From: a virus
Taxonomy: Duplodnaviria; Caudoviricetes
Reading direction: 5' to 3' (one strand)
Virus record (IMG/VR): IMGVR_UViG_3300032221_000516
Span: 1 to 60,223 of that record
DNA length: 60,223 bases
Shown: piece by piece, positions 20,315 to 50,744 of the stretch
How the letters are laid out: each line of letters starts with the position of its first letter
Numbering within the stretch: the stretch's first letter is position 1
Made by a program: the position numbers and the translations under genes
Notes under the pieces: generated by a model
The model's input: only the letters and a program-made list of their open reading frames with translations
Database searches by the model: none
What the model was told of the DNA's origin: nothing

Positions 20315-20941
20315 ATGTTGAATAAAAAATCCTTAGATCTTATTCTCGAATTTGAAGTTGGCGGTGGCGAAAACTATTATAATAAATTTTTAAAAAATCC
20401 AGCATGGCCAGGAGAGCAAAGCGGAGTTACAATTGGTGTTGGTTATGATCTTGGATATGTTAACAAAGCAGAATTCACAAATGATTGGAAAGAATTACCC
20501 CAAAAAGATTTTGATAGATTATATAAAGTAGTTGGAATAAAAGGCATAACCGCAAAAGATCTTATAAGAGGATTAAAAGATATATCTATTCCTTGGGATC
20601 TTGCCCTTAAGGTATTTAACAATAAAACAGTAACAAAATTCTATAATCTAACAAAACAAACTTTTCCTAATTTTGATAATCTTCCAGAAAATGCAAAAGG
20701 TGGATTAGTTAGTCTTGTATTTAATAGAGGAGCAGCTTTAGAAGGTGATCGTCGCCGCGAAATGAAATTAATTAGAGATGGTATGAAATTAGTATCTACT
20801 TTTGATCAAAAAGCATTAACCTTTATAGCTAATCAAATAAGAAATATGAAAAGAATCTGGATTGGTGGAAGCATAGAAAAAGGCATGAGTCGCAGACGAG
20901 ACGCAGAAGCTAAATTAATAGAAGAATCGTTAAAAGTGTAA
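20315..20941 (+). CDS. endolysin (lysozyme-fold, pesticin-C/GH24-like)
   Basis: ILEFEVGG, WPGEQSGVTIGVGYDLG, LVSLVFNRG and RRRDAEA motifs. Confidence 0.85.
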   Translation: MLNKKSLDLILEFEVGGGENYYNKFLKNPAWPGEQSGVTIGVGYDLGYVNKAEFTNDWKELPQKDFDRLYKVVGIKGITAKDLIRGLKDISIPWDLALKVFNNKTVTKFYNLTKQTFPNFDNLPENAKGGLVSLVFNRGAALEGDRRREMKLIRDGMKLVSTFDQKALTFIANQIRNMKRIWIGGSIEKGMSRRRDAEAKLIEESLKV

Positions 20942-27715: not shown

Positions 27716-30700
27716 ATGGCAGACATTACAGTAGATGTTAATTTGCCTAGTACAATTAGTGTTGATGTAACATCACCAACACAGGTTTTAGCTACTAACA
27801 TTTCTATTCCTGGACCTCAAGGACCAAGAGGAGAAAAAGGTAATCCTACATCAATAAATAGTTTAACTGCAGAAAATATTATTATAACTGGATCAGATGG
27901 TAATATAGTTTATAATAGTGGCCTTAATACAATTTTTATTTCTGGTAATAGTGGATATTTTCAATCAGCAGTAAACTCTTTAACAACTAATTTAAATTCA
28001 ACTGGTGCCAATTTAAATACTTCAATAAACTCTTTAAGTGGATTGTTTACTGGATATACTGGAACTTTAGATGCAACTTATGCAACAGATTCTCAATTAA
28101 ATTCAACTGGTAATACATTAAATATTAAAATAGATAACCTAAGTGGTTATGTAAATTCTCAAGATTCAAATATATCAAACAACTTAGCATCTACTGGATC
28201 TTCTCTTCAAAGTAATATAAATACACTTTCATCTAATTTAAATTCTACTGGTACTACTTTAAATTCTAGTATATCTTCTTTGAGTGGAACTCTAACTTCT
28301 AACTACGCTACAATCATTAACCTTGCGTCCACAGGTTCAAATCTACAAAATCAGATTAATAATTTTGATAACGTTTATGCAACAGACGCTAGCGTTACAG
28401 CAGTAGCAAATAATCTTGCTAGTACTGGTAGTACGTTAGAAACTAAAATTGGTTCATTAAGTGGGACTTTGACAAGTAATTATGCAACAATTACAAATTT
28501 AGGTTTAACTGGTAGCACATTAAATAATAATATAAATTCACTTAGCGGAACCTTAACTTCCAACTACGCAACTATTACTAATCTTGCAAGTACTGGTTCA
28601 ACTTTAGTTTCTAGTATAAATTCTCTTAACTCTGCTTTTACTGGATTTACTGGAAATCTTGATGCAACATATGCAACCGATAGTCAATTAGCTACTACTG
28701 GAACAACTCTTGTTAATAGCATTAGTTCTCTTAGCGGAACTTTGACTTCTAATTATGCAACTATTAGTAATCTCGCTAGCACTGGTTCAACATTAGTTAA
28801 TACCATAAGTTCATTGAGTGGTACTTTAACTTCTAACTATGCTACTATAAATAATTTAAATTCTACAGGAAGCACTTTAGAAACAAATATAGCCTCTACT
28901 GGTAATACATTAAATTTAAGTATAAATTCACTTAGCGGAACTTTGACTTCAACATATGCTACAATAACAAATTTAGCATCAACTGGTTCAACTTTAAATA
29001 ATAGTATTAGCTCTTTGAGCGGAACTCTTACTAGTACTTACGCTACAATAAATAATCTAGCAAGCACTGGTTCTACACTACAAAGCAACATCAATACATT
29101 AACAAATGATTTAAGCTCAACAGGTAGTTCATTAGATAATAAGATTGGATTATTGAGCGGAACGCTAACATCTACTTACGCTACTATCTCAAATCTTTCT
29201 AGCACAGGTTCTACATTAAACACAAGAATCAATGACTTAAGTGGATATGTTAATACTCAAGATAATTCTATATCTAACAATTTAATTTCTACTGGTAATA
29301 CTTTACAAAATAATATAAATTCACTTAGCGGCAGTTCAGTTTTACTTTATGGAAATCAAAGCGTTGGTGGAGTTAAAACTTTTAGAGATAATGTTTATAT
29401 TAATAATCTTTTTGTTACTGGAACTGAAACAATTGTTAATACTCCACAGATTAATATTGCAAGTAATTATTTGCTTTTGAATCTTACTGGTGGCGCAGTA
29501 GATGGTGGAATTTTCTTTGTTACTGGAAGTGGTTTAACAGGAATAAATGATACTGGTCCAATTATTGGTTTTGATCATGTTAATAAATTTAAATTTGGAA
29601 TTAGCACAAGAAATAGTGACCTTTCAACTTTACCTGATATAGCATCAGTTCAAGATATTACTACTTATAGCGGTTTTGTTGATGGCAAGTACTCAACCAT
29701 AATAAATCTTGCTTCAACTGGAAGCACACTATCTACAAATCTAGCCAGTACAGGTTCGACCCTCCAAACAAATATAAATAACTTAAGTAATACCTATGCT
29801 ACAATCACAAACCTCGCTTCGACTGGAAGTACGCTAGTTACTAATTTAGCTAGTACTGGCAGTACTTTAGCCACTAACCTTGCTAATACTGGCTCAACAC
29901 TTCAAACTAATATAAATAATCTTAGCGGCTATGTTAATTCTTCATCTAGTAATATAGTATTTACAACTGGGAACCAAACTATAAGTGGAAGTAAAACTTT
30001 TAACAATACATTATCTGTTACTAGTATATCTGGTTTAAGTGGAGTTGGTGGGCCAACTTCCATTGATATTAAAGGAATGGATAATGCTTCATTAGTATTT
30101 GGTAGTAATTACCTTGGTGGTTATGTTAATATAACAGCTGGAAGTGGAAATCTTGCAGGAGGACAAATTAATTTATATGCAGGAAAATTTGGTTCTACAG
30201 CTTATGGTGGAAATATTAATGTAATTGCTTCTAATATTAATATAAATAATGATAATACTTCAGCGAAAAGTATAACCATTTATAAAACTGGAGCAAGTTC
30301 AACAAGTGCTAATATTAGCATTGGACAAACTTCAGTTGATGTAGATAATATTTTTAGAATTAGTGGAGTAGCAGTAACTCCATCTCTTTATGCTACTTCA
30401 GCTAATTTAGCTTCTACTGGAAGCACATTAGTTACGAATTTAGCTAGTACTGGATCAACTTTAAACTCTAGCATTAATTCATTAAGTGGTACATTGACTG
30501 GAAATTACCTTACAACTTCATCTGCTTCTAGCACTTATGCAACTATCACTAATCTAGCAAGCACTGGCTCTACTTTAAATACCAGAATAAACAATCTTAG
30601 TGGTTATATAAATTCAACATCTAGTAATATTGTATTTACAACTGGAAATCAAAATATTGGTGGAAATAAAACATTTACTGGAATTACTACATTCTCTGGT

Positions 30701-31717
30701 CAAGAAGTTAATCTTATAGATACAGCATTAAATCTTAGCGGTGTTGGAGACATGACATTTTCTGGCACAAATATTAATTTTATTAATTCTCCAGTATACA
30801 TAACTGGCACAAATTTAAGAGTTAGTGGTGATGCATCAGCATATAACGTATATACAACTGGCAAAATTGGAATAGGAACATCCTCTCCTACGGAAAAATT
30901 AGAAGTAGCTGGTAATATTAAATTTGGTGATGTTGCAAATGGTTATTCTGCTAAGTTTATGATGTGGGACACTCCAAATGCCGAATATAATACTGGAGAA
31001 TGGACTGACTCTCAATTTATATTAAGAAATTCTACACCTAATGCACATATAGCATTAGTTTTCGAAACAATCACAAATTATATAGAATCTAATGGTTCAA
31101 TACTTAGGCTTCCTTCTGGTAAAGATGATTTTATCGCAATGGATCGCGAAGTTGTTCACAAAACTGGAAATGAAACTATCTCTGGAGTCAAAACTTTCAT
31201 AGGAAATCAAATTATTAGTGGTAATACAACAATAACTGGTAATCTTAATGTTTCTGGAATGATTAGAACTCCTCAACAAAACAAAACATTTGTTTATAGA
31301 CCAACTATAACTGGAGGTGGAAATAACACTGCAACAATTGCTTATGGAGCAAATTGTACTCTTACTCCAAGATACGTTGGGACATTAAGAGCAGATGCAT
31401 GTATTTCAATGTGGGGCATAAATGGCGCATCAAGTGATACAATACAAGCTGCTTCATTTTGGTATGGCACAGGAACAGCCCCAGTTTATTCTGGAAATCT
31501 AGTAAACTTAGGAGGAACTAGAATTGGAGGACTAAAACATGTGCAGCATGGTTCGAGCCCAGCAATAAGCACCGTATATCCAGTTGGAACTTCTTGGGTC
31601 GCAGAAATAACTGGTTTAAATACTGGAACTCAATATTGGTTTGATATTGGAATTTCTGGCAGCAACGGAAGATTACGAGTTCAAGACGTTCAATTGTATA
31701 TAGAAGAAAAATATTGA
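27716..31717 (+). CDS. long trimeric fibre protein
   Basis: Short collagen GPQGPRGEKG; many YATITNLASTGSTL..INSLSG coiled-coil repeats; TGNQTISG.KTF shaft motifs; IGIGTSSPTEKLEVAG. Confidence 0.8.
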   Translation: MADITVDVNLPSTISVDVTSPTQVLATNISIPGPQGPRGEKGNPTSINSLTAENIIITGSDGNIVYNSGLNTIFISGNSGYFQSAVNSLTTNLNSTGANLNTSINSLSGLFTGYTGTLDATYATDSQLNSTGNTLNIKIDNLSGYVNSQDSNISNNLASTGSSLQSNINTLSSNLNSTGTTLNSSISSLSGTLTSNYATIINLASTGSNLQNQINNFDNVYATDASVTAVANNLASTGSTLETKIGSLSGTLTSNYATITNLGLTGSTLNNNINSLSGTLTSNYATITNLASTGSTLVSSINSLNSAFTGFTGNLDATYATDSQLATTGTTLVNSISSLSGTLTSNYATISNLASTGSTLVNTISSLSGTLTSNYATINNLNSTGSTLETNIASTGNTLNLSINSLSGTLTSTYATITNLASTGSTLNNSISSLSGTLTSTYATINNLASTGSTLQSNINTLTNDLSSTGSSLDNKIGLLSGTLTSTYATISNLSSTGSTLNTRINDLSGYVNTQDNSISNNLISTGNTLQNNINSLSGSSVLLYGNQSVGGVKTFRDNVYINNLFVTGTETIVNTPQINIASNYLLLNLTGGAVDGGIFFVTGSGLTGINDTGPIIGFDHVNKFKFGISTRNSDLSTLPDIASVQDITTYSGFVDGKYSTIINLASTGSTLSTNLASTGSTLQTNINNLSNTYATITNLASTGSTLVTNLASTGSTLATNLANTGSTLQTNINNLSGYVNSSSSNIVFTTGNQTISGSKTFNNTLSVTSISGLSGVGGPTSIDIKGMDNASLVFGSNYLGGYVNITAGSGNLAGGQINLYAGKFGSTAYGGNINVIASNININNDNTSAKSITIYKTGASSTSANISIGQTSVDVDNIFRISGVAVTPSLYATSANLASTGSTLVTNLASTGSTLNSSINSLSGTLTGNYLTTSSASSTYATITNLASTGSTLNTRINNLSGYINSTSSNIVFTTGNQNIGGNKTFTGITTFSGQEVNLIDTALNLSGVGDMTFSGTNINFINSPVYITGTNLRVSGDASAYNVYTTGKIGIGTSSPTEKLEVAGNIKFGDVANGYSAKFMMWDTPNAEYNTGEWTDSQFILRNSTPNAHIALVFETITNYIESNGSILRLPSGKDDFIAMDREVVHKTGNETISGVKTFIGNQIISGNTTITGNLNVSGMIRTPQQNKTFVYRPTITGGGNNTATIAYGANCTLTPRYVGTLRADACISMWGINGASSDTIQAASFWYGTGTAPVYSGNLVNLGGTRIGGLKHVQHGSSPAISTVYPVGTSWVAEITGLNTGTQYWFDIGISGSNGRLRVQDVQLYIEEKY

Positions 31718-32368: not shown

Positions 32369-33046
32369 ATGAGGATAGAAAACGAGATATTGGGCATCAA
32401 AATTGATTGCTTAAATTATTATCCAAATAAAGTATATTTGAATGATATATTTTATGAGATTATGGGCGGAATGTATGATATGGAGGTAAAAGATACTAAA
32501 GTCGTTGATATCGGTGCTTTTTATGGCGAAACAGCAATTTATTATTCAAAGATGGGAGCATCAGAAGTGTTTGCATATGAACCATTCAAAAGTGAATCTT
32601 TTATCTCCTCCAATGCACAATTAAATGGATGCAATAATATAAAAAGTTACAGAATGGCAGTTTCAGATAATGATGGATTTTTTAATTGCGATCCAGATTT
32701 TGAGAATCGCGCAGAAACAAAGATTTATTATGCTGAAAATCCAGATAAAAAATTAAATAAAATCAGTTTAGAAAGTATCGTTAATGAACATAATATTGAA
32801 GATGGATGTTTAAAATTAGATGCAGAAGGAGCAGAATTTGAGATTATAAAAGGTGCGCCAGTAGAAACCTTAAGGAGATTTAAACAAATGGTATTAGAAG
32901 TGCATAATTACTTTGGTAATATCGATGAAATAACAGATAAATTAATGAATAGTGGATTTGATATAACCTATAGCCCTAATCCTATAGTAAAATTTGAATT
33001 TAGAGACTCTATAAAAATGCTAAAATGTATAAGAAATAATAGATAA
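32369..33046 (+). CDS. FkbM-family SAM-dependent methyltransferase
   Basis: VVDIGAFYG, AYEP, LKLDAEGAEFEII and LEVH motifs. Confidence 0.9.
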   Translation: MRIENEILGIKIDCLNYYPNKVYLNDIFYEIMGGMYDMEVKDTKVVDIGAFYGETAIYYSKMGASEVFAYEPFKSESFISSNAQLNGCNNIKSYRMAVSDNDGFFNCDPDFENRAETKIYYAENPDKKLNKISLESIVNEHNIEDGCLKLDAEGAEFEIIKGAPVETLRRFKQMVLEVHNYFGNIDEITDKLMNSGFDITYSPNPIVKFEFRDSIKMLKCIRNNR

Positions 33047-35580: not shown

Positions 35581-36396
35581 ATGGGCAATGTAACATACTA
35601 TCCAGCACAAAAGTTATTAATAACAGGAGCAGAAATTAATCTTGTTCAAAGCGCAGACGTAGATTTCAGTATTAGTCGTCAAGACATTTACGAATTTGGT
35701 AATCTATATGCAGTAGACAATATTCAAGTTGAACCACCAACTGCTACTTTGAATTTTTCTTACATTCTAGCTACTGGAATCAATAACCACATTCTATTAG
35801 GTCTAAACAACCTAGATACTTTACTCGCTGACGTAGCTGGAAAACAATACACTCTAACTGGCGCTGGCCTTCTAACTATTCCAAGTGGAGTTATTAGTTC
35901 TTATGCAGTAGAAGGTTCACTAGGAAATGTTCCAACAGTAACAGTAAGTGTACAAGCTCTTGATGCAACATATAGTGCTGGTAACCCAACTTATCCAGCT
36001 GGTTCAATCAATGAATTGAATGTAGTTCGTCCAGATCAAATTGATATTGTTCTTGGTGGAACAAGTTACGAATGTAGATCCTTCTCATTCACCCTCGATA
36101 TTCCACGCGAATACGTAAATAAACTAGGACAACTAACTCCTATCGCTAATATTCTAACTGGTCCTCCAAAGGTAACAGTAGAAGCAGAAGTTATTTTAAG
36201 AGATAATGCAAATCCAAAATTCGCAAATGATGCATCAAACAATGTAAACATTGCTTGCGGAACATTGAACTTTGCAGTTTCTGGAGCTAAACTTGCTAAC
36301 TTTACTTCCAATACTACATTAGACGATATTCAAATCGCTTCAATAACATTGGAAGCACCAGTTAAATCTGCTTCTCAAATCACAATCTCTGCTTAA
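35581..36396 (+). CDS. major tail (tube) protein
   Basis: Strong SD; highly-expressed codon bias; VQS...SRQDIYEFG and a second repeat SFSFTLDIPRE..KLG; position before chaperones and TMP. Confidence 0.75.
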   Translation: MGNVTYYPAQKLLITGAEINLVQSADVDFSISRQDIYEFGNLYAVDNIQVEPPTATLNFSYILATGINNHILLGLNNLDTLLADVAGKQYTLTGAGLLTIPSGVISSYAVEGSLGNVPTVTVSVQALDATYSAGNPTYPAGSINELNVVRPDQIDIVLGGTSYECRSFSFTLDIPREYVNKLGQLTPIANILTGPPKVTVEAEVILRDNANPKFANDASNNVNIACGTLNFAVSGAKLANFTSNTTLDDIQIASITLEAPVKSASQITISA

Positions 36397-36685: not shown

Positions 36686-36945
36686 GAAAACTTCATTTTA
36701 ATTTTCCAGTTCAAAGCATTATAGAAGCAAATTTAAATTTGCAAACTATACAAAGAACTCTATCTAAAGAATACAAGATATATAGCCCAAAACTAGAAAC
36801 ACTAGTAAGTGATAAATTTATATCTATGTACAAAACTTGGGGCGAAAAAAGAAAAGAAGATTTTGTCAAAACGATAGCTGGTAAATTGAATTTTAAAAAA
36901 GTTAAGAATTTTTTTGATGAAAAAACAGGAGAAACAAATGAGTAA
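36682..36945 (+). CDS. hypothetical protein
   Basis: ATGA-coupled, 87 aa. Confidence 0.6.
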   Translation: MRKLHFNFPVQSIIEANLNLQTIQRTLSKEYKIYSPKLETLVSDKFISMYKTWGEKRKEDFVKTIAGKLNFKKVKNFFDEKTGETNE

Positions 36946-37699
36946 ATATTTATATAATTTTACAGAAAACAAAACAGTAGAAGTTGAAAAAATTGAAGAA
37001 TCTACTAATGAAAACAATGAATTAGTCAAAACAATTAAAAAAGTTAAAGAAGAAAAACCTTTTGAATTTGCTATCAGAAAACCAAATAGAGCTATGACTG
37101 ATGATGCAGAACTTTTTTATGGAGTTAAATTAGCAGAAGGTATTAAAGCTGGCATGCTTACTAGAACTTTAATGGTTAAAAAGTATGATAAAGATGGTGG
37201 TATTTTTACAGAAGGCGAAGTAGAAAAGATTAAGATTCTTTTAGAAGAGTTAACCAACGTACAAATAAAGTATCAAGTTTACGTTGATAAGGAAGATAAA
37301 AAAGAAGAATTAACTCAACAAGAAAAAGAAGAGAAAAACAAATTAGAAGCACAAGTTAATGCTCTAAGACTAGAGCTTATTGAATTAGAAAATACCAAGA
37401 ATAATATCTTTGAACAAACCGCAGAGAATAGAGCTAAAAATAAAACTATGATGTGGTGGATTCTTTTCTTATCATATAAAAAAGAAGGTGATAATTATAC
37501 TCCATTATTTGGAGAAGGAACTTACGAACAAAGAATCAAAAAATACGATGAAATAGAAGAGGGCGAAGATGAATTTCTTAAAAACATACTTACTAAATTC
37601 GCTTATTTTGTAAGTTTTTGGTATTCTGGAAAAGCTGCTAAACCAGAAGATTTTAAAGTAATTGAAGACTATTTAAAGGAGCAAGGTAATCAAACTTGA
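36938..37699 (+). CDS. putative tail assembly chaperone (start corrected to 36938)
   Basis: SD AGGAG; charged coiled coil; lies between tube and TMP. Confidence 0.55.
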   Translation: MSKYLYNFTENKTVEVEKIEESTNENNELVKTIKKVKEEKPFEFAIRKPNRAMTDDAELFYGVKLAEGIKAGMLTRTLMVKKYDKDGGIFTEGEVEKIKILLEELTNVQIKYQVYVDKEDKKEELTQQEKEEKNKLEAQVNALRLELIELENTKNNIFEQTAENRAKNKTMMWWILFLSYKKEGDNYTPLFGEGTYEQRIKKYDEIEEGEDEFLKNILTKFAYFVSFWYSGKAAKPEDFKVIEDYLKEQGNQT

Positions 37700-38682
37700 T
37701 AAATATTGCAGATAAAAGGTTAAAACTTTTATTTTTTGATATTTGTAATCGTTACTCTAGTCTTATAGATAAAGACCAACATATCTATATAAAGCATTAT
37801 GGGGAATTTGACTCTGGTGCATTTGAAGAATATTTTTTTGAATACTATGAAAAAGCTAGAAAAAATGGTTTACCAACCTATGCTGAAAAAGAAAAACTTT
37901 TAATATTAGAAAATTATTGGACAGAAGAGCAAGAAAAAGAATTAAAATACAAGACGGAAAAACTAGAAAAACTAGAAAAAATATATAGTGGTTTGTTTCT
38001 TAAGTCTCATATAGATAAATCTAAAAAAGAAATAACTGAATTAAAAAAAGAAGTTAAAATATTATCAGATGACAAAAAAGATCTTATGGGTATTTACGCT
38101 GAATCTTATGCTCAAGGTAAGGTTGATTTTATTTATATTTTAAATTCATTTTATAAAGACAAAGATCTTAAAGATAGAATATTAGATATAGATATATGTG
38201 ATATAGATGAAAATGCTTATTACAAATATATAATATTACATAATAAAGCTATTGAAAAATTTAATATTAATAATATTAAAAGAATAGCCTTATCTGATTT
38301 TTTTCAAAATATGGTTAATGCAGCTGACGCTAATTGTTATTTTCTTTTTAATAAAGCTATTTATGATTTAAGTTATTATCAATCTAGTATATTTAGTTAT
38401 GGTAAATTTTTTCATACAGTACTAGGTTTACCAGAAGCTAGAAAACTTGATTCTGAAACTAAAAAAGATCCAGATAAACTAATGGAATGGTATAATGCTT
38501 TTGCTAATTTTAAAAGTAAGAATCCTAGCGCTAGTGGCAAAGGAATGAACTTTGTAATGGGCGCAAACAAAGAAGATATGGAGTATTTGAAGCAAGAAGT
38601 CAAAAATGACGTTAATGATATGGCTAAAGCAAAAGGAGGAACATTAGGTATAGCTGATCTAGCAAAATTATCAAAAATCTAA
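37696..38682 (+). CDS. putative second tail assembly chaperone
   Basis: TTG start overlapping the previous stop; directly before TMP. Confidence 0.5.
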   Translation: MINIADKRLKLLFFDICNRYSSLIDKDQHIYIKHYGEFDSGAFEEYFFEYYEKARKNGLPTYAEKEKLLILENYWTEEQEKELKYKTEKLEKLEKIYSGLFLKSHIDKSKKEITELKKEVKILSDDKKDLMGIYAESYAQGKVDFIYILNSFYKDKDLKDRILDIDICDIDENAYYKYIILHNKAIEKFNINNIKRIALSDFFQNMVNAADANCYFLFNKAIYDLSYYQSSIFSYGKFFHTVLGLPEARKLDSETKKDPDKLMEWYNAFANFKSKNPSASGKGMNFVMGANKEDMEYLKQEVKNDVNDMAKAKGGTLGIADLAKLSKI

Positions 38683-38725: not shown

Positions 38726-41700
38726 ATGAGCGATATTATCTTATCGGTTGATGGAGATCTCAGACCATTAGAGTCTAAACTAAGTAGAATATCGTCAAAA
38801 AATATAAGTTTAAATTTAAGAGATAGTTTATCTCAACCTCTTGGAAGAATTACTGGAAAAGTATCAGAATTCGAAAAATCATTAGAAGCATCTAATGCTC
38901 GTGTTTTGGCATTCGGTGCTTCTGCTGGAGCTGTATACGCAGTTCAAAGAGCTTTTGGCGAAGTTGTTAAAGCAACAATTCAAGTAGAAAAAAGTCTTAC
39001 AGATATTAATGTAGTTTTAAATGCTTCAGCAAGAGATCTTGGTGCTTTTGGTAAAGAATTATTTGGTATAGCTAAAAATACTGGTCAAGGTTTTGACCAA
39101 GTTGCAAAAGCTGCAACAGAATTTGCTCGTCAAGGTCTTGGCATTGAAGAAACATTAAAAAGAACAAGTGATGCTCTTATATTAAGTCGTCTTTCTGGTT
39201 TAGATGCAGCTAGAAGCGTAGAAACATTAACTGCAGCAGTAAATACTTTTTCAAGAGCTGGATTAACTTCTACTCAAATTATTAATAAATTAGCAAATGT
39301 TGACGCTGCTTTTGCAGTAAGCACAGGAGACCTTGCAGAAGCAATTAGTCGAGTTGGCAGTACAGCTCAAGATGTTGGAGTTGATTTTGATCAATTAATT
39401 GCGATTGTTACAGCAGCTCAACAAACAACAGCTAGAGGTGGAGCTGTTATTGGTAACTCATTTAAGACTATATTCACTCGCTTACAAAGAACAGATACTT
39501 TAGATGCTCTTGAAGGAGTTGGCATAGCTGTTAAAGATTTACAAGGAAATACATTACCAGCAGTTCAAATCTTAAAAAATCTATCAGATGTATTTTATAC
39601 ATTGAGTGATGCACAAAGAGCCTCTGTTGCAGAAACTGTTGGTGGTGTTTTCCAAATCAATATTTTGAGAGCTGCATTATCAGATTTAACAAAAGAATAC
39701 AGCGTATACAATGGCGCATTAAGTACTGCTAGAAGTGCTACAGATCAAGCTATTCAAAGAAATGAAGCTTTAAATCAAACTTTATCAGCATTAACAAACA
39801 AAACATTTGTTAATCTATTAGAAGCTGCAGCTAAAATTGGTGAAATAACAATTGCTCCAACTATAAAAACTGGTTTAGGAGGACTAAATGCAATATTAGA
39901 AGAATTTAATAGACCAGAAGAACTTCAAGGAACAGGAACAAAAATAGCTACAGGAATCTTAAAGGGAATTGGAAGTTATATTAGTGGTCCTGGATTAGCT
40001 GTAGTTGGTGTTGCATTTATAAAAATATTTGGTGGTTTAACTAAGTTTAGTGCTGAAGCTTTAAAAAGTCTTATTGGTATTGCTAGTAGTGCAGATAAAA
40101 TTGCAGCAGCACAAGCAAGAGTAAATGCAATCTTAGCTCAAAATCCAGCATTGATTCAAGCAGTAATATCAAAAGATGCTTCACTTCTTCAAGTTGAAAA
40201 TCAAATTTTAAAAATTATACAGCAACAAAATGCAGCAAGAGCTGTAGGTGCAGCAATTTCAGCAAGAGCTACGCCTCTTGTTGCAGCAGCCACAGTACCA
40301 AAAGTAAAAACAAGATCTGCTGGTTATATACCAAATTTTGTATCACCAACTATGCAAGAAAAAATGGGCGCATATGCTGGTGGATATACTCCTGGCTCAG
40401 TAAAGAAAATGGGAGGAATGTATTACAATACAGCAGAGAGTGTTGTTCAATTTCCTGGAGCAGATGGTCCAGCAATTATTCCACCACAAAATAGTCTTGC
40501 TGGAGAAAATTATAGAAGCACATTTAAAAAACAAGTAGGTTTTGATCCATATGCTTACCGAGGATACGTACCAAATTTTGCTCCTTTAGAAGCTAACTAT
40601 CCAGAAAAAAGTGGTCCTTCATCAAGAGTTTCAATGATTTATGCAAAGAAGGCTGGTATAGGCGTTGGTACTGGCGTAGCAAAATATGGTGGATATGATA
40701 TACCAATTAAATTTAATACAGCTGGATTTTCAGCTCAAAGAGTTAAGAAGCCTGCAGATGTAGATTTAGAAAAACAATTAGGAAATTATTTAACAAGATT
40801 TACAAATAATTTTGCACAAAGAATATTTGCTGGTGGACCAGCTGGATCTTCTGCAAGAATTGGTGGTATCGAAGAACTTTCTAATAAAGGATCATTTAAA
40901 AGTATTGTTGGTACTGTTTTTGAAACAGCTGTTGATTTAGCTGCAGGAAAAATAAACGAGGGAAGGCCTCAAAATGCTCCTATAGATTTTGTCGCACCAA
41001 ATACTTTATTAAAAAGAATGTTTGGGAATGCTCCTGGTGCTTATGAAGCAAAAGTAAATAATAATCAAGATCAACTAAATAGTGTTGCTCAAAAAATGAT
41101 TAATACAGGCTTAGTATCTGACTCTTTAAAATCAGCAATAGGATTAAAAGGGAAAGCAGAAGGAAAAAGAAGAGCTAGAGTTAAACCTGCAAGATTTCGT
41201 CAAGCTTCTTTCGGTCATATACCTAATTTTTCAGCATTGCAAGATGCAATTGCTCGTGAACAAGCTGCTGGCGTTAATTCTAATTTAATTAGAGTTGGTA
41301 CTAGTTCTAGTTTAATGTCTAGAGGTAATCCTCTTGGTCTTGGTGTTTATAATACAAAAGATGAACCAGCTGGATTACAACAAGGAGTCAATCGTTATAG
41401 CGGAAGAATACCAAATTTTGCTGAAACTGGAGGAGGAGCAGCCCCACAAGTTAATGATTTAAAAAATGCAGCTGATAAAGGCGCAAAAAATATAGAAAAA
41501 CATTCTACAACAATAGGTGATAATCAAGGAAGATTATTAGCTCTTGGTGTTGGTTTATCTATTTTACAAGGAACTCTATCTCAGGTTGGAGATCAAAATA
41601 GTAAATTTGCAAAAGGATTAAATCAAACAGTTAGTGTTTTAAGTACAGTTACAACTGGCTTGGGTGTTTTTGGTGGAGGAAAAAAAGGTATTGCTGCTAC

Positions 41701-43825
41701 TGGAGGTATGTTAGCAATACAAGGCGTCGCTGGACTTTCTGCAAATGCAGACAAAACTTTTGCTTCTCAAATGGCAAATTTAGACAAAGCTTTAGAAAAT
41801 ACAAGAGAACAATCATCAAAATTAGAAAGTGTTATAAATTCTGTTACTCCACAAATAAATGCTTATGTAGAAGAATTAGAAAAAGCCGAACCAGATCCAG
41901 AAGCTATAGCAAAATTTAAAAAAGCAATTTTAGATGCCGTATCTACTCTTGGTCCAGAATTACAAGAACAAATAAGAAATAATTTAGAATCTCCTCAAGC
42001 CATAATGGGTACTTTATCAAAATCTCAACGAGCAGGTGGAATTGCTCAAAACCAAATTGGTTTACAACAATTAGTTTTATCTGAGCAAGGACAATCAAGA
42101 GCAAACATGGGAATGAAAGGACAATTTGGTAAAATTTTAGCTGGCACAGGAATACCTGGTCTTGCGGGTTTTGGTCAAGGCTTAATGCAAAAAGAAATGC
42201 AACCAACTTTTCAAAAAGAAGGTTCTATTACAAAAGCTGCTAATATTGTTCTAGAACCAATATCTCAAAGTACAGAAGACTTATTATTACTTGCTGATGT
42301 TCTTTCTCAAAATTCTGATTCTGCTTCAGCTTTTTTTGCTTCCTTAGAAGCTCTTTATCAAGGCGCGGGACAAAGCACAGAAAGCTTAATGGCTCTTAAA
42401 GAAGAATTATCTAAGAATCCAGAAGCAACTAAGAAGATGGTTTCAGAAACATTAAAATTAACAAAAGCACAATTAGAAAATGCAGCAGCTGCATCAAAAA
42501 TGGGAACTCCAACTGCTCCTGGATACAAAGGCGTTAGTAAATTATATGGCGCAGGAATGTTTGATGAACAATATCAGCAGCAACCAATTGATGATCTTAA
42601 TAATACTTTGAGTAGATTAGCTATGGTTAGTGGCAAAGGACCAGCAGCAGAAATGTTAAAAAATAGAATCAAAGGTCGAGCCGCTTTACAACAAGCTGGT
42701 GCAGGAATGGAAGTTAGTGAAGAATATAAAAAAGGTGGAGCTGCATTTGCAGCAGAAAGAATGCAACAAACAGAAAAAACATATGCAAGTCTTTTAGAAA
42801 CAACTGGACAAACCGAAGATGCAAAGAAAGTTAGAAAAGTTATAGCTGACACAAATTATGATGAAATGGGCACAACAGCGATGGGAGAACAGATTGCTGC
42901 TGCTCAACAAGATGTACCAGTAAGAGCAGGTATGAGTTCTGTAGTTCCACCTCTTACAGAAGAGCAAAGAAAAATGCAAGAACAAGCTGCAGCTTCTGCT
43001 GAAGCAGCAAAACAACTAGGAGGAGCAACAACTTCTACAAGAGCAGATCTAATTTCAACTGGCACAGGGCCAGCTACACCTGCTCCAGATATCTTAAATA
43101 CTTTGCTTGCTGGTGGTGGAGGACTTGCATCTTTGGTTGGTGGAGGACTTTCATTCGCTGGAGGAGCGTTACCTTTTGTTGGTAAAGCTTTAGGTGGAGT
43201 AGGAGGAGGTCTAGTTAGAGGAGCAGGTACAGCTGTAGCTGGCACTGCTGGCGGTGCTGTAGCTGGTGGAGCTGCAGCTGCAGGAGTTGGTTATGCAAGC
43301 TACAAAGGCGGAGAAGCTCTTGGGGAATATATTGATCCAGGAGCAGAAAAACGCACAGCTATGCTTGAAGCAATTCCTGGAGTAAAAACTGGGTTTGAAT
43401 TCTTATCTTCTGCTTTACCTAGTTTTCTTGGCGGTGGAGGAGCCGAAGGACCTAGCCAAGAAGATGAAGCTAAAACAAATGAAATGTTCAATCAAGCTAA
43501 AGAAAAACAAAAACAAAGACTACAAAGACAACAAGCCGTCTCAGAAGCACCAACCGCAGAAGTTCCAGAAAGCCAGATGCAAGAAGCACAAAAAACAGCT
43601 AGCACAAAAGAGGCTCAACAGAATCAAATTAATAATACAATTTCTGTATCTCCAAGTATCAATATTGCTCAACAAGCTGCAACTGATAAAGCTGAATTAC
43701 AAAAATTAATTGAGGCAGAAGTAAAGAAGTTCGGTGAAACTATTGTAAAAATTGCAGAGGACAAGGCAAAAGCAAGGGAAAAGGGCGTTGTTAATCCACC
43801 ACAAAAGTTGAATTTAACAGCGTAA
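38726..43825 (+). CDS. tail tape measure protein with accessory domains
   Basis: TP901/PhageMin_Tail-like core (EFARQG, LAEAISRVG, GAVIGNSFKTIFTRL); Ala/Gly-rich; 1699 aa. Confidence 0.9.
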   Translation: MSDIILSVDGDLRPLESKLSRISSKNISLNLRDSLSQPLGRITGKVSEFEKSLEASNARVLAFGASAGAVYAVQRAFGEVVKATIQVEKSLTDINVVLNASARDLGAFGKELFGIAKNTGQGFDQVAKAATEFARQGLGIEETLKRTSDALILSRLSGLDAARSVETLTAAVNTFSRAGLTSTQIINKLANVDAAFAVSTGDLAEAISRVGSTAQDVGVDFDQLIAIVTAAQQTTARGGAVIGNSFKTIFTRLQRTDTLDALEGVGIAVKDLQGNTLPAVQILKNLSDVFYTLSDAQRASVAETVGGVFQINILRAALSDLTKEYSVYNGALSTARSATDQAIQRNEALNQTLSALTNKTFVNLLEAAAKIGEITIAPTIKTGLGGLNAILEEFNRPEELQGTGTKIATGILKGIGSYISGPGLAVVGVAFIKIFGGLTKFSAEALKSLIGIASSADKIAAAQARVNAILAQNPALIQAVISKDASLLQVENQILKIIQQQNAARAVGAAISARATPLVAAATVPKVKTRSAGYIPNFVSPTMQEKMGAYAGGYTPGSVKKMGGMYYNTAESVVQFPGADGPAIIPPQNSLAGENYRSTFKKQVGFDPYAYRGYVPNFAPLEANYPEKSGPSSRVSMIYAKKAGIGVGTGVAKYGGYDIPIKFNTAGFSAQRVKKPADVDLEKQLGNYLTRFTNNFAQRIFAGGPAGSSARIGGIEELSNKGSFKSIVGTVFETAVDLAAGKINEGRPQNAPIDFVAPNTLLKRMFGNAPGAYEAKVNNNQDQLNSVAQKMINTGLVSDSLKSAIGLKGKAEGKRRARVKPARFRQASFGHIPNFSALQDAIAREQAAGVNSNLIRVGTSSSLMSRGNPLGLGVYNTKDEPAGLQQGVNRYSGRIPNFAETGGGAAPQVNDLKNAADKGAKNIEKHSTTIGDNQGRLLALGVGLSILQGTLSQVGDQNSKFAKGLNQTVSVLSTVTTGLGVFGGGKKGIAATGGMLAIQGVAGLSANADKTFASQMANLDKALENTREQSSKLESVINSVTPQINAYVEELEKAEPDPEAIAKFKKAILDAVSTLGPELQEQIRNNLESPQAIMGTLSKSQRAGGIAQNQIGLQQLVLSEQGQSRANMGMKGQFGKILAGTGIPGLAGFGQGLMQKEMQPTFQKEGSITKAANIVLEPISQSTEDLLLLADVLSQNSDSASAFFASLEALYQGAGQSTESLMALKEELSKNPEATKKMVSETLKLTKAQLENAAAASKMGTPTAPGYKGVSKLYGAGMFDEQYQQQPIDDLNNTLSRLAMVSGKGPAAEMLKNRIKGRAALQQAGAGMEVSEEYKKGGAAFAAERMQQTEKTYASLLETTGQTEDAKKVRKVIADTNYDEMGTTAMGEQIAAAQQDVPVRAGMSSVVPPLTEEQRKMQEQAAASAEAAKQLGGATTSTRADLISTGTGPATPAPDILNTLLAGGGGLASLVGGGLSFAGGALPFVGKALGGVGGGLVRGAGTAVAGTAGGAVAGGAAAAGVGYASYKGGEALGEYIDPGAEKRTAMLEAIPGVKTGFEFLSSALPSFLGGGGAEGPSQEDEAKTNEMFNQAKEKQKQRLQRQQAVSEAPTAEVPESQMQEAQKTASTKEAQQNQINNTISVSPSINIAQQAATDKAELQKLIEAEVKKFGETIVKIAEDKAKAREKGVVNPPQKLNLTA

Positions 43826-45514: not shown

Positions 45515-47040
45515 GTAATATAGCATTACCTTACGCTTTCTTAGAAGGATCAAGCTTAACTGCTCAAAAAATAACAGCTTTTGCCACAAAAAGAATAGAA
45601 CCAATTTTTAACGGTCCAAATCATTATGCTAATAGAGTTATATTTAATATACAAGGTGAATATTTGCCACAAGGCATAGGTGGTAATATACCTAATGTAT
45701 TATCACCAATTAATATTAAAGGATTCTTAGATAGCTTTACTACTTTTACAAATTCAAATTGCACACTAACCAATATAAATCTTCAAGAATCTAATTGGAT
45801 TGGTCATGTTCCTTATGAAGTAGATTGTGAATGCTATGCTTTTGTTGATGATAATCTAAACAAAACAATTAATGCAAGTAATGAAATAAATGTAACTGAA
45901 AATATAGATGGAACAATAACAATTAGTAGAAATATCAATGTTGGAGCAGTATCTATTAATGGTTCTGATCCAGTTCAAAATGCAAGAACATTTGCTCAAT
46001 TACTTAGTGGTCAAACAACAAATTGGAGATTGAATTTTTCTACAAGTAATAAAAGTCAAAATTTTTCAAACATAGTTTTAAATACTTCTTCAGAAACAGC
46101 AGATATTTTTAATGGCACATATTCAATACAACAAAATTTCACAGCAAATTTACTTAGCAAAGATTTGTCTAAAAAAGGAATTGTTAAAAACTCTATAGAA
46201 ATTCAATCAGGTATAGATGGATTAGCTACAATAAATAAAAGATCCACAGTAGTAGGAGGATTAAATACAACTGAAGATGATTTAAAAAATATAGCGAAAA
46301 CTAATTCTTTTGCAATTCCTGGCAATTTTTCAATATTTTCAAATACATCAAGCTATGATGATATTTCAAGAACCTTAGAAATAAATACTATTTTTTCCAA
46401 TGATAAAACAATAACATCTAATGGCAATAAGGTAACAAATAGTTTAAGTTTCAATTATGATTTCTTTAACAGCACTTATAGTGCAAATTTTAATTCAGAA
46501 GTAAGACCTGCAACAGTAGTTAAATCAACCCCTAATGTAAAAACTGATCTTTCTAAAAATATATCATCTCAATTAAAAACTTATGATCCATTAGGTAATA
46601 CTCTTATATTAGAATCTTCAGCAGAAGGTAGTGGCATAGCTACTCAACTAGCAAATTATACTGAATCATATATTTTAAGTCCATCAATAATTGGAGGATC
46701 AAATGGAATACAATTTTATGATTTATCTCTTAATGTAGACTATCAACCAGGATATCCTCAAAATACATTCAGCCCAATATTAAGTGGAAAAGGCCAATAT
46801 TATTTAGAAAATTTAGATGTGGTTAATAATTCTGTGCTTAATATCAGTATGAATGGTAAATATGTTACTGCCCCACCAGATAAAAAATTATTTGAAAATG
46901 CTGTAAAAAGTGGTGATTTAGTAAAATTAAATAAAACTTTAATATTGAAAGATGAGATAGGAATTAACTATAATAATAGAACATTTAATTATGTACAACA
47001 AAAAGTGGGAAATGACCAGACATTCAAGGATGTAACATGA
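45511..47040 (+). CDS. tail tip protein, probable paralogue of 43832
   Basis: ATKRIE motif and similar beta pattern; ATGA coupling. Confidence 0.5.
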   Translation: MSNIALPYAFLEGSSLTAQKITAFATKRIEPIFNGPNHYANRVIFNIQGEYLPQGIGGNIPNVLSPINIKGFLDSFTTFTNSNCTLTNINLQESNWIGHVPYEVDCECYAFVDDNLNKTINASNEINVTENIDGTITISRNINVGAVSINGSDPVQNARTFAQLLSGQTTNWRLNFSTSNKSQNFSNIVLNTSSETADIFNGTYSIQQNFTANLLSKDLSKKGIVKNSIEIQSGIDGLATINKRSTVVGGLNTTEDDLKNIAKTNSFAIPGNFSIFSNTSSYDDISRTLEINTIFSNDKTITSNGNKVTNSLSFNYDFFNSTYSANFNSEVRPATVVKSTPNVKTDLSKNISSQLKTYDPLGNTLILESSAEGSGIATQLANYTESYILSPSIIGGSNGIQFYDLSLNVDYQPGYPQNTFSPILSGKGQYYLENLDVVNNSVLNISMNGKYVTAPPDKKLFENAVKSGDLVKLNKTLILKDEIGINYNNRTFNYVQQKVGNDQTFKDVT

Positions 47041-50000
47041 AGAATAATACAAAATATTTCTTAAATGAACTTAGTGTAGAAACTGGTAATTATATTGTTC
47101 ATTACTTTTTTGATCCTCTTAATTTTAGCGGTAATAACTATGTATATAATAATACGCCATATACAAATTATACTGGTTTTTATAGTGGATCAAATTTAAC
47201 AAATAATCTAAATGCTCAAACTGGCTATCTATACTTTACTGGAAATAGCAGAATAGATATAAGTTTACCAAATTTTAGTACTGAACAATTTACTTTTATA
47301 TATTCTTACGAGAAAACCAATAATAGCCCTTGCGTCCTGTTTTCTAATTTAAATACTGGCTCTAATGGCAAATATTATGGGTTTAACGTTTGCGTAAGTA
47401 ATTATAATAATATTCTTATAGAATACTATGACACTAATAATGAATTAAAGTATTTAACTACAAACTATAATTTAGATACAAAAGGTATATTATCAGTTAG
47501 AGGATACTCTAATAATATATTCGTAAGTTATTACAATGCTGCATTTGATAATTTTTATACAGAATCTTTTGAAATAGATAACAATATAACTCCAAATGTA
47601 ACAGGATCTATAGTTTTAGGTAGTGGCAAATTCTCTAACTTTCCTAACTATAGCGGTTATGTAAAAGATTTTATATTGATAGATCAAAATATCACAGACT
47701 TTCAATTAAACAATGTTATTGATCAATTTGTTTATAACTTAAGCTCTTATTATACTTTATCACTTGATAATGAATTTTATGGATATACAAATTATCCAGA
47801 AAATATTACTCATATTTTTAATAGTTATTCTGGCATAACAGGATGTTTTAGTAATCAATTTTTAGATAATACTGGAGTTATCTCTGGAAGCATAACTGGA
47901 AGTAATTACAGTTTAGACTTGACTGGTATTAGTGGTAAAGGCGCGCCAATTCCTTCTAATTTATTATCACTAAAAAATAATATACAAAAACTTCAAATTT
48001 TTGGAGCTTATGGTATATCCTCAGATGCCACAAAAGCAGTAATGGCTCTTTTAAAAGATGGAACTTTAACTGGATGGGGAGATAATTATAACGGAAGAAT
48101 AAGTGGGTCTACTGGTAATTTTAATAATTGGACAGGAACACCAGTGGGTAAATTAACTAATGTTGTAGATTTTGATTGTAAAGGAACTTCATGTTTAGCT
48201 TTATTTAGTGATGGCACAGCCACGGGTTGGGGATCTAATTATCTTGGAAACATATTTGGAACAACAGGAGATAATGATTTAAATAGTTATTTTACTGGAA
48301 TTTTTTCAGAATCTCCACTTGGACAATTAACTGATTTATCTGGTATATCTAAAGGCGAACTTTATTCTTTATTTCTAAAAAATGATGGAACATTAATCTC
48401 TTGGGGAATTAATACTCACGGTCAAGTTGCTGCTATTAATGATAGATTTTTAGGTTATCCATTAAAACTCAATATCACAGGAATATATGAAGACTATACA
48501 TATTTGTCAGGTCTAATACTAGACTATACTGGGCATTATAACTCTAAACCAGCATATAAATATATCAATGATCTTGAAAATTTTGGTCTTTCGCTTTATA
48601 ACAATACAACTGGCTGGATATTAAATTATAGTGGTTTATCTGATATTATTAATTTAACAGGTAATTCGTATGCGCCGCCAGTAACAAATAGTTTAAATCT
48701 TCCATATCAAATAGTCGTTGAAAATAGTTTAGATACGGGAATTAATGTTTTATATACTTATAATTCTACTTCTGGATATATTAATAATATAAATAATTGG
48801 AGAATATTTAGAAGTGGAATTAATTGGATTGTTTATTCTGGAGTTACAGGATATCAAAATGGTGGTGGAACTTCTTCATTATTACCATTAACTAATTGGA
48901 CTGGAATAGAAGAAAATGAGTTTTACGGTGATATTACTATCAAACCAAAATATGTTCAATTAGGTTATGTATATAATAGCGACGACGGTGGTTTTTACAG
49001 TATATTCACTGGAATATTTGCAGATAATGCAGTTGGTAAATTAACTGGAATATCTAAAATAAGTGCTGGATGGAAACAGTCTTTTGCATTAAAAAACGAT
49101 GGAACAATAACTGGATGGGGTCATAATGTTTATAAAAATGTTGACCCAAATAATTCTTCATTTATGTGGTCAGGTAATTGGAGTAATAATACTTTAAGTT
49201 TATTAACTGGAGTAATTGATATACAATCAGTTTCTGATCATACTCTTGTTTTATTTAATAACGGAAGAATAAGCGGTTGGGGCAGTAATTATTATCAAAA
49301 TTTATTTCCAGCAACTGGTGGAAATAATTTAACTGGAGTAAATAAAATCGCTGGAGGAGATCTTTTTTCTCAAGCTTTACTAAATAATAACGTACTAACT
49401 GGCTGGGGACTTACCGATAGTTATCCATTTTTTTCAATTGTAAATAATATTAAAAATTTTAATTGTGGAGAATATGGAACATATTACGAAAACATTACTG
49501 GTCAAGAAGTTAAAAATTTAGTTTCTGGTAATGCTTATTTTGTTTATAACATAGAAGTAGAAAGACCGAGTATAATAACAGAAACAATAACAACTATAGT
49601 TAGCCAAATTTCTGGTTATGAAAATCAAGTATTATTCTCTGGAGTAACTGGATATAATACTGGTTGGTATAAAGATATACCTCAATTTTGCGGAACAGGA
49701 TTTCCAATGTATCTTGTATCTGGAATTATAGGCACTATAACAGGAAATGTATTAACTGGTATTGATATCACAACATCTTCTTCAACATCTCAAGTATTAG
49801 TATTAAGTAATGAAACTTATCAAACAGGATTTTCTTCTGGAATTTATGATCCATCAAAAACAGGAAATTATGTTTATGACTTTTCGTATGTTAATGATGG
49901 ATCTCAAGTAAATATGCTTGATATTATATATCTAGATACTGGATATCATACATTACAATCTAAAAATGTATTTATAAAAGAAGATGGATATATTGCTAAT

Positions 50001-50744
50001 AAAACAACAAATTTAAATTATCTAAAAAATTATACATTAGGAAAGAATCTAGATTACTTAAATTCTCTTGGCGTAGATTTGCTATTGATAAATCAATTAA
50101 TTGATAATGATGATATTCTTGAAATATATTTGTTTAAAATTAATAGTGGATTAGATATTAATTTAAATAATTCATTATTATTAAGCAAAGCTTCTAAGAA
50201 CTTTAGATTTGCTAATACTGGCGCTAATTATTCTGTTAATGTAAATGGCGTTGGTCAAATTAGTGGATTTGATTATTTATTAACTGGTACATTAGGCTCA
50301 CCACTAGCTGCATATGACTTTTTTGATTATATAGAAGGTGATTTTGTAAAAACTGGAGAAGCTATATTTACATATACTGGTGAAACTGGTAGAATTTTGA
50401 ATAAAAAAGACTTTTTATACTTAAATGGACAAAAACTAATAAGTGGATATCATTATAATTTTAATACTCCAAATATTCAATATATTACTGGAAACATACC
50501 TGTCACAGGAATAGTTCATGCTTTTAATGTACTAATAGAATATGATAGATATACAGGCTCAATGTATAGTTTTGATTTACCTAGATTTAGTAAAAATAGT
50601 GAGTTAATTTGGCTTAATGGCATTAAGCTAAAGTCTGATAGTTATTATGAAATATCTGAAAATGATCAATTTTATAATCCAACTTTCTATGACAAAACAG
50701 ATGTAATTATATATAATAATACAGACAATTATTTCAATGAGTAA
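47037..50744 (+). CDS. tail protein with LamG-like N-terminus and RCC1-like repeats
   Basis: Repeated ALxxDGTxxGWG.N motifs; C-terminal LYLNGQKL/IWLNGIKL repeats. Confidence 0.7.
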   Translation: MKNNTKYFLNELSVETGNYIVHYFFDPLNFSGNNYVYNNTPYTNYTGFYSGSNLTNNLNAQTGYLYFTGNSRIDISLPNFSTEQFTFIYSYEKTNNSPCVLFSNLNTGSNGKYYGFNVCVSNYNNILIEYYDTNNELKYLTTNYNLDTKGILSVRGYSNNIFVSYYNAAFDNFYTESFEIDNNITPNVTGSIVLGSGKFSNFPNYSGYVKDFILIDQNITDFQLNNVIDQFVYNLSSYYTLSLDNEFYGYTNYPENITHIFNSYSGITGCFSNQFLDNTGVISGSITGSNYSLDLTGISGKGAPIPSNLLSLKNNIQKLQIFGAYGISSDATKAVMALLKDGTLTGWGDNYNGRISGSTGNFNNWTGTPVGKLTNVVDFDCKGTSCLALFSDGTATGWGSNYLGNIFGTTGDNDLNSYFTGIFSESPLGQLTDLSGISKGELYSLFLKNDGTLISWGINTHGQVAAINDRFLGYPLKLNITGIYEDYTYLSGLILDYTGHYNSKPAYKYINDLENFGLSLYNNTTGWILNYSGLSDIINLTGNSYAPPVTNSLNLPYQIVVENSLDTGINVLYTYNSTSGYINNINNWRIFRSGINWIVYSGVTGYQNGGGTSSLLPLTNWTGIEENEFYGDITIKPKYVQLGYVYNSDDGGFYSIFTGIFADNAVGKLTGISKISAGWKQSFALKNDGTITGWGHNVYKNVDPNNSSFMWSGNWSNNTLSLLTGVIDIQSVSDHTLVLFNNGRISGWGSNYYQNLFPATGGNNLTGVNKIAGGDLFSQALLNNNVLTGWGLTDSYPFFSIVNNIKNFNCGEYGTYYENITGQEVKNLVSGNAYFVYNIEVERPSIITETITTIVSQISGYENQVLFSGVTGYNTGWYKDIPQFCGTGFPMYLVSGIIGTITGNVLTGIDITTSSSTSQVLVLSNETYQTGFSSGIYDPSKTGNYVYDFSYVNDGSQVNMLDIIYLDTGYHTLQSKNVFIKEDGYIANKTTNLNYLKNYTLGKNLDYLNSLGVDLLLINQLIDNDDILEIYLFKINSGLDINLNNSLLLSKASKNFRFANTGANYSVNVNGVGQISGFDYLLTGTLGSPLAAYDFFDYIEGDFVKTGEAIFTYTGETGRILNKKDFLYLNGQKLISGYHYNFNTPNIQYITGNIPVTGIVHAFNVLIEYDRYTGSMYSFDLPRFSKNSELIWLNGIKLKSDSYYEISENDQFYNPTFYDKTDVIIYNNTDNYFNE

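Follow-up and report, generated by a model that had tools for sequence, protein, structure and literature searches.

What is a cassette cut up by four copies of one hexapeptide doing in the middle of a phage tape measure protein (TMP)? The question is raised by IMG/VR virus record IMGVR_UViG_3300032221_000516 (Caudoviricetes), a lake-water phage, of which a stretch of 60,223 nucleotides, here called the window, was analysed; the record is estimated to be 39% complete and has a G+C content of about 30%. TMPs are usually regarded as rulers or conduits that occasionally carry a cell-wall enzyme. An earlier note on this DNA had placed four GxxPNF motifs at residues 533, 613, 830 and 893 of a TMP and had taken the large domain between the middle two for a swappable nuclease of the PD-(D/E)xK type. 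Our analysis suggests a motif-delimited module cassette within the TMP, whose enzyme-type module, D, is swapped between phages, would be delivered at injection and would turn over under pressure from the host; we judge the chances of this reading as a whole to be about even. The following elements are involved:

38726..43825, +, TMP gene, 1699 amino acids (aa), protein P0001 (list of open reading frames (ORFs), translation, PF10145, TMP PHROGs, TIGR01760)
38936..39919, +, TP901-type TMP N-terminal domain (aa 71-398; PF10145 core aa 116-307)
40322..40339, +, motif 1, GYIPNF (aa 533-538), kept in relatives
40340..40561, +, body of bracket unit U1 (aa 539-612), predicted helix, four short strands, helix
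40562..40579, +, motif 2, GYVPNF (aa 613-618), left edge of the exchanged cassette
40580..41212, +, D module (aa 619-829, 211 aa), basic alpha/beta domain, AF2 pLDDT 81.5, pI 10.1
41213..41230, +, motif 3, GHIPNF (aa 830-835), right edge of the exchanged cassette
41231..41401, +, body of bracket unit U2 (aa 836-892), the most conserved unit (NP-x-GLGVYNTKDEP)
41402..41419, +, motif 4, GRIPNF (aa 893-898)

Judged by its family matches, the ORF at 38726..43825 is a TP901-type tail tape measure protein, in agreement with the earlier note: PF10145 matches aa 116-307 (E 7.3e-29; 101.5 bits, cutoff 33.2), TIGR01760 matches aa 71-398 (E 2.2e-37; 128.9 bits, cutoff 28.8), and TMP PHROGs match the ORF as well. 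Translation and a motif scan found the four motifs at the residues named above, and the motif-to-motif spacings of 80, 217 and 63 aa in P0001 fit the units of ~80, ~215 and ~60 aa that had been described. GTVFE733, PID754F and E774AK776 also lie where the note had them. The same holds for the basic tail at aa 801-829 and for the hydrophobic, Gly-rich stretches farther along, at aa 937-955 and aa 1460-1485. When aa 525-905 served as the query of a word-indexed search, 1001 proteins were returned at E<=1e-3, and 117 of the best 120 of these were TMP-sized and carried PF10145. HMMER, run exhaustively over 1.84 billion cluster representatives, yielded 914 clusters (50% identity), 67 of them at E<=1e-30. 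The best 120 of the 1001 and the best 150 of the 914, two overlapping sets, make up the 262 relatives (166-5354 aa, median 2196) on which the counts below are based; they are a part of the family, not the whole of it.

Exchange of D between conserved bracket units

P0011 is 99-100% identical to the window's TMP over aa 1-532, U1 and ~500 aa after U2, 96% identical in U2 and 77% in the C-terminal 300 aa, and just 43% identical in D; the divergence starts directly past GYVPNFA and stops at SFGH(I/V)PNF. A comparison of 139 D-bearing TMPs included 116 pairs with upstream parts at least 95% identical. D was <60% identical in 66 of these pairs and two more had no D match at all. The reverse case occurs too, as the D of P0025 and P0026 is 100% identical to that of P0051 next to upstream parts with 51% identity.

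The same boundaries are visible at the DNA level. In U1 the window shares 85-93% of its nucleotides with the viral loci L062 and L001. The value is about 56-60% just after motif 2 and again 80-91% in U2, and declines once more past motif 4. In lake-water metagenomes of two studies, one contig each (run X5, 9583 nt; run X6, 3739 nt) matches positions 39600-40581 and 41207-42200 of the window with 16-21 differences and carries a different sequence in place of 40582..41206. The replacement consists of 172 letters for 166, a 35-nt island and 484 letters for 424, and its joints are 2 nt downstream of motif 2 and 6 nt upstream of motif 3. A contig of run X3 carries the window's D allele throughout, and in run X18 the flanks are covered by short contigs, none of which spans D. 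A metagenome scan for the P0011-type allele recovered only L062, a 61%-identical locus. From these sequence comparisons we conclude that D alleles are swapped between phages at motifs 2 and 3, with conserved U1 and U2 DNA serving as flanking homology. P0011, the 66 of 116 pairs and the X5 and X6 contigs thus bear out the earlier proposal of a swappable domain between recombination junctions.

Beyond motif 4 (41420..43825), the stretch just past U2 and the C-terminal 300 aa vary strongly among close relatives; P0003, for example, is 70% identical to the window's TMP in the C-terminal part and 94-99% elsewhere. The TMP may therefore have additional exchange zones beyond D.

Both bracket units are very conserved. 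Alignment A4 of U1 from 23 viral loci has a mean column identity of 75% with 36 invariant columns, both bounding motifs included, and alignment A3 of U2 from 26 viral loci one of 77%; among the invariant blocks of the two units are GGY-x-PG, PAI-x-PP and NP-x-GLGVYNTKDEP. With jackhmmer, U1 was detected in 253 and U2 in 258 of the 262 relatives, and the order U1 to U2 is kept in 246. In an AlphaFold model that covers the whole cassette (pLDDT 63, pTM 0.40), U1 and U2 are small alpha/beta units with pLDDT about 60-77. The fold search with this model gave nothing significant and effectively did not probe U1 and U2, PDB profile searches with U2 (A3) and U1 (A4) produced chance-level rows only, and the ESM Atlas had no usable match for U2. 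A two-chain prediction of a U1 and U2 complex scored 0.00, which is uninformative on a clasp between the units. The pattern E..A..G..YNT..E that the note had seen in both short units is present, with YNT at aa 567 in U1 and aa 875 in U2; the profiles of the two align in just the 8 motif columns, and homology of U1 and U2 was rejected at the profile level. In several cluster-1 relatives U1 occurs once more, about 1200 aa beyond U2, and the 483-aa P0133 consists of three consecutive U2 copies.

The content between the motifs was surveyed by cutting the 262 proteins at the motifs into pieces of 40-700 aa, which were clustered by BLAST. The resulting 668 modules fall into 120 clusters: one of U2 (152 members), three of U1 (143, 19 and 9), four of D (111, 40, 3 and 1) and about 110 others, of which 82 are singletons. 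Inter-motif domains thus vary on conserved flanks, as the earlier idea of exchangeable cargo implied. When 24 of the other module clusters were compared with D by hhalign, the best probability was 12.7%, that is, they are unrelated to D. We also considered a single fast-evolving D family behind all inter-motif content and rejected it, since the D-core HMM converges with 189 of the 262 proteins and these 24 clusters show no relation to D. The window's TMP has one variable module, and relatives reach up to 12 motifs per protein. Judged from these sequences, U1, the linkers and U2 form a standard socket in the central third of the TMP that is common to hundreds of TMP clusters.

Pfam names little in 28 long relatives, namely SNase, DUF7178 and a weak PGDYG. 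The SNase match is in P0210 (aa 918-1015, PF00565, 23.3 bits against a gathering cutoff of 21), and this module aligns over the full domain with thermonuclease 4pmc (E 2.6e-5; query 11-132, chain 14-136). It forms cluster 15 with the corresponding modules of P0191, P0257 and P0259, in which DGD, R-L-x-G-V-D-x-x-E and Y-x-R-G-L are kept, which we take to be the catalytic stretches of SNase. All four proteins belong to the 73 TMPs without a detectable D core. By sequence, then, the same array position is held in relatives by a real nuclease, which is staphylococcal nuclease-like over its full length and differs from that enzyme in being embedded between PNF motifs in a TMP array. Profile comparison of the SNase modules with D gave a probability of 0.1%, and PF00565 was not found by Pfam in the window's TMP. 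Two further motif-bounded modules were noted, one in P0124 (aa 1342-1538) that matches DUF7178 with E 1e-11 and one in P0200 (aa 1826-1866) with the weak PGDYG match.

Short conserved motifs that demarcate a swappable toxin domain, frequently a nuclease, are familiar from polymorphic toxins such as Rhs and CDI. The cassette shares with these the short invariant peptide at the exchange boundary of a conserved scaffold, with breakpoints at motifs 2 and 3 in both protein and DNA. Unlike theirs, it is internal rather than C-terminal, bounded on both sides and carried by a virion protein, and there is no adjacent immunity gene; the cassette lies within the ORF, which leaves no room for one. Strings of unrelated, shuffled modules including a nuclease, as found in the relatives' TMPs, also recall the polyvalent proteins, described as large proteins with many unrelated and rapidly shuffled effector domains, nucleases among them, that are delivered with the DNA (PMC5512222). 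In the present case U1 and U2 enclose the array, which is part of a structural tail protein and has a fixed hexapeptide linker. The signature peptidase MPTase and other named polyvalent domains are absent from the Pfam matches of P0001 and the 28 long relatives. The nearest named Atlas cluster to D, at 0.88, carries LPD38, a phage-type polyvalent domain, which we treat as a lead only. PMC5512222 makes no mention of tape measure proteins, the word 'tape' having no occurrence in it. In the literature searched, the motif strings turn up in a single unrelated paper, and the search listings and passages of PMC7824862 and PMC5512222 describe no such cassette in connection with a TMP and a nuclease domain, polyvalent protein or staphylococcal nuclease.

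The motif as a probable inter-module linker

From the composition of the TMP, 0.011 occurrences of G..PNF would be expected by chance, and among 20000 shuffles of the protein 209 contained one G..PNF and none contained more. Across all six reading frames of the window, G.[IV]PNF was confined to the four TMP sites. In the 262 relatives [IV]PNF occurs 950 times, with G at -3 in 898 cases and Ala at +1 in 573, and position -2 is taken by an aromatic residue or Leu. A PNY variant (G-F/L-I-P-N-Y) is present at some junctions, e.g. in P0070, P0072 and P0210, so that the last residue tolerates Tyr and the motif counts, for which PNF was required, are slightly low. At the codon level, 208 motifs from 58 viral loci use all four Gly and all four Pro codons, AAT 195 times and AAC 13 times, and TTT 173 times and TTC 35 times. 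Owing to this synonymous variety we regard the hexapeptide as held by selection at the protein level and not only as DNA homology.

All four motif segments lie in stretches below pLDDT 50 in the whole-cassette model. For this reason the motif is read as a linear element within predicted flexible inter-module linkers, with the otherwise invariant junction consensus G-(F/Y/H)-(I/V)-P-N-F. Its role in the protein could be processing, docking or folding of the modules, and cleavage at the linker would be possible. A stronger version of this idea is that the motifs are proteolytic, possibly Asn-dependent self-cleaving sites that set U1, D and U2 free as separate polypeptides while the tail matures or once the TMP has been ejected. 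Such cleavage could go together with any of the readings of D given below, and we consider it possible, if somewhat doubtful. The invariance of the motif amino acids despite synonymous change, their position in predicted disordered linkers and the polyprotein-like way in which every module is bounded by them, in arrays that reach 12 motifs, would all suit it, and viral entry proteins with Asn-dependent self-cleavage exist. For polyvalent proteins, separation of the domains into processed units on deployment has been proposed (Iyer et al. 2017, PMC5512222). However, Pfam detected no protease domain in the TMP or the 28 relatives, none was recognised in the window, and the same observations would fit a docking or folding role equally well. 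Taken further, the TMP might be a dedicated effector platform whose modules, from many unrelated families with nucleases among them, travel down the tail lumen, are freed after ejection by (self-)cleavage at the motif Asn, attack host nucleic acids or defences before the genome arrives and are traded at the linkers by lake-water phages, much as polymorphic toxins are by bacteria; U1 and U2 might then assist self-catalysed cleavage at this Asn. We think it improbable that all of this applies.

The D module and its candidate active site

Within D, conservation is concentrated in a short core followed by a basic tail:

40880..41101, +, conserved D core (aa 719-792; iterated HMM)
40922-40924, +, codon of E733
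40985-40987, +, codon of D754
41045-41047, +, codon of E774
41051-41053, +, codon of K776
41093-41095, +, codon of K790
41126..41212, +, basic tail of D (aa 801-829), pI 12.0, net charge +9, low-confidence in the model

The iterated HMM of the D core converges on a single copy in 189 of the 262 relatives, in 182 of these between U1 and U2. G729, E733 and D754 are present in all 189, and position 774 is split between E (96) and D (92), together 188/189. K776 is kept in 188/189, F732 in 184/189, K790 in 183/189 and F766 in 181/189. The residues that the earlier note had singled out as catalytic are therefore conserved. Otherwise the alleles drift widely, 22 diverse ones (alignment A1) being 18-57% identical to the window's D, and all of them are basic (pI 9.3-10.3, net charge +6 to +22), with a K/R-rich tail across the aligned alleles. 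On sequence grounds D appears to carry a candidate active-site set, E733, D754, (E/D)774-x-K776 and K790, in a protein that drifts to about 20% identity elsewhere. We regard it as a basic, enzyme-like module that would be delivered with the TMP and is possibly a nuclease.

The AlphaFold model of D, built on A1, reaches pLDDT 81.5 and pTM 0.73. It has a three-stranded sheet and two long helices, the second of which bears E733, then a less confident loop with D754, a short helix, a strand with E774-x-K776 and a helix with K790. The order of E, hydrophobic-D and (E/D)-x-K fits PD-(D/E)xK enzymes, with D 21 residues on and (E/D)-x-K 20 more. A canonical restriction-endonuclease-like D that cuts host or competitor DNA at injection would agree with this spacing, with the local secondary structure (a helix bearing E, and a strand bearing (E/D)-x-K with a helix after it), with the near-invariance of the residues, with the basic character of the module and with the presence of another nuclease as a module in relatives. 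The predicted topology, however, appears to differ from the canonical core, and no structural or profile match was obtained. Foldseek and VIA searches of solved and viral structures found nothing significant with the model, the C-terminal half of which was poorly probed. Pfam had no family for the window's D at E<=1 and six unrelated families, one match each and none of them PD-(D/E)xK, for the 22 alleles; NCBIfam had no match for D. The cassette reached at best E 0.93 against PDB sequences and had no tblastn match in INPHARED phage records, and a PDB profile search with D (A1) returned chance-level rows only. The ESM Atlas listed unnamed viral clusters only (0.90-0.91), apart from the LPD38 cluster. 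The fold of D would be either absent from the PDB or a PD-(D/E)xK core that has diverged past structural recognition, and a canonical PD-(D/E)xK nuclease seems to us unlikely. For the earlier interpretation this means that its modular, swappable part stands, and that the restriction-like fold, as it was worded, is not supported by a model of pLDDT 81.5 without structural match and without a Pfam family.

Peptidoglycan-degrading domains have precedent in TMPs, e.g. of mycobacteriophages and T5-type phages, and E733 and D754 might instead be the catalytic carboxylates of a cell-wall hydrolase. A Glu on a helix, an Asp about 20 residues on and a high pI are chemically compatible with a lysozyme. 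However, lysozyme, transglycosylase, M23 and NlpC/P60 domains are usually easily recognised and were absent from the Foldseek, VIA and Pfam results, and we know of no role for (E/D)xK and K790 in these enzymes. We consider a muralytic D very unlikely. The cassette does share with enzyme-bearing TMPs a globular, functional domain inside a TP901/lambda-type TMP that would be delivered to the envelope on TMP expulsion, and the window's TMP has the N-terminal domain of the family and hydrophobic, Gly-rich segments. It differs from them in that D matches no muralytic family or fold, that the bracketed cassette is exchanged as a unit and that relatives carry arrays of unrelated modules.

More serious is the alternative that D is not an enzyme at all and serves in host interaction or entry, by contacting an inner-membrane or periplasmic factor or as part of a trans-envelope conduit. 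Swaps would then alter the host range or evade superinfection exclusion or TMP-sensing defences, and the invariant residues would serve the fold or bind a ligand or metal. Very rapid turnover of alleles on near-identical backbones is typical of specificity determinants, no enzyme fold or family was matched, and all occurrences of D were inside TMPs, a search for standalone homologues of 116-370 aa having found none. In addition, the defence nuclease SNIPE is reported to associate with tape measure proteins, which implies host pressure on TMP surfaces (bioRxiv 10.1101/2025.11.03.685801). Against a non-enzymatic D stand the charged residues E, D, (E/D)xK and K, which are each kept in 183-189 of the 189 cores and look more like an active site, while a binding surface should vary; moreover, a real nuclease occupies the same array position in relatives. 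A non-enzymatic D is thus conceivable, and in our judgement it falls well short of even chances.

Returning to an enzymatic D, we suggest that it would most likely be a metal-dependent phosphodiesterase or nuclease-like hydrolase. As the TMP would pass out of the tail lumen before the DNA does, D would arrive in the host envelope or cytoplasm during injection. Behind the fast turnover of D alleles there might then be an arms race with inhibitors made by the host or with defences that sense the TMP.

By these sequence comparisons the cassette may be seen as a variation on known themes, namely TMP-embedded enzymes and polyvalent and polymorphic effector proteins. What it adds is a large uncultivated family of 914 clusters (50% identity), whose proteins reach 5354 aa, with a standardised socket, into which unrelated modules plug that are traded between phages identical in other respects. 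Should the modules be effectors, they would represent a new route by which siphoviruses send proteins ahead of their DNA, and the socket would be a modular scaffold that lends itself naturally to the engineering of cargo into phage tails. D itself combines a conserved candidate active site with a fold that had no match in any library searched, TMP processing can be probed at a sharply defined site, the PNF linker, and the turnover of D alleles offers a handle on which parts of a TMP hosts "see".

The tail region and other genes of the window

The setting of the TMP gene is the one expected of its class, with the tube gene followed by two overlapping ORFs, the 1699-aa ORF and further large ORFs, the latter encoding tail-region proteins of 560-1235 aa 3' of the TMP gene. 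The upstream genes and the hydrophobic segments of the TMP are as follows:

35581..36396, +, tail tube protein gene (PF18906, E 3.6e-8; phrog_290)
36914..38682, +, two overlapping ORFs between the tail tube and TMP genes, in chaperone position (ORF list)
39965..40054, +, first hydrophobic segment of the TMP (aa 414-443; Kyte-Doolittle scan)
41534..41590, +, hydrophobic, Gly-rich TMP segment (aa 937-955)
43103..43180, +, hydrophobic, Gly-rich TMP segment (aa 1460-1485)

PHROG and Pfam scans gave no family matches for the ORFs in 36914..38682, which by their position would be the tail assembly chaperones. No sheath gene was recognised in the window, and the tail is therefore likely long and non-contractile, of the siphovirus type. 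A scan of 185,579 species genomes returned nothing with a single sequence and two short contigs of metagenome-assembled genomes with alignment A2; because just these two matched, we consider the phage probably lytic.

Two ORFs 5' of the tail tube gene resemble, by their domain matches, fibre or receptor-binding proteins. One of 1333 aa (27716..31717, +) has BppL_N repeats (lower baseplate protein N-terminal) and long coiled-coil matches, and one of 787 aa (16170..18533, +) has BppL_N repeats together with BNR/sortilin beta-propeller repeats. An FkbM-type methyltransferase (32369..33046, +; PF05050, phrog_8156) is encoded in the midst of structural genes, between the 1333-aa ORF and the tail tube gene. 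In the distal tail region, a 1235-aa protein with RCC1 repeats (47037..50744, +) and a 509-aa protein with FG-GAP repeats (57634..59163, +), both repeats of the beta-propeller type, are likely host-binding parts.

An ERCC4-type nuclease domain (E 3.7e-11) was found in the ORF at 11442..12389 (+), which immediately precedes and overlaps the gene for the terminase large subunit (12386..14233, +; Terminase_6N). The window further encodes a PhoH-like ATPase (6245..6964, +; E 6e-50), an ORF with a weak match to sigma-70 region 2 (9612..10358, +) and a pesticin/lysozyme-like ORF (20315..20941, +).

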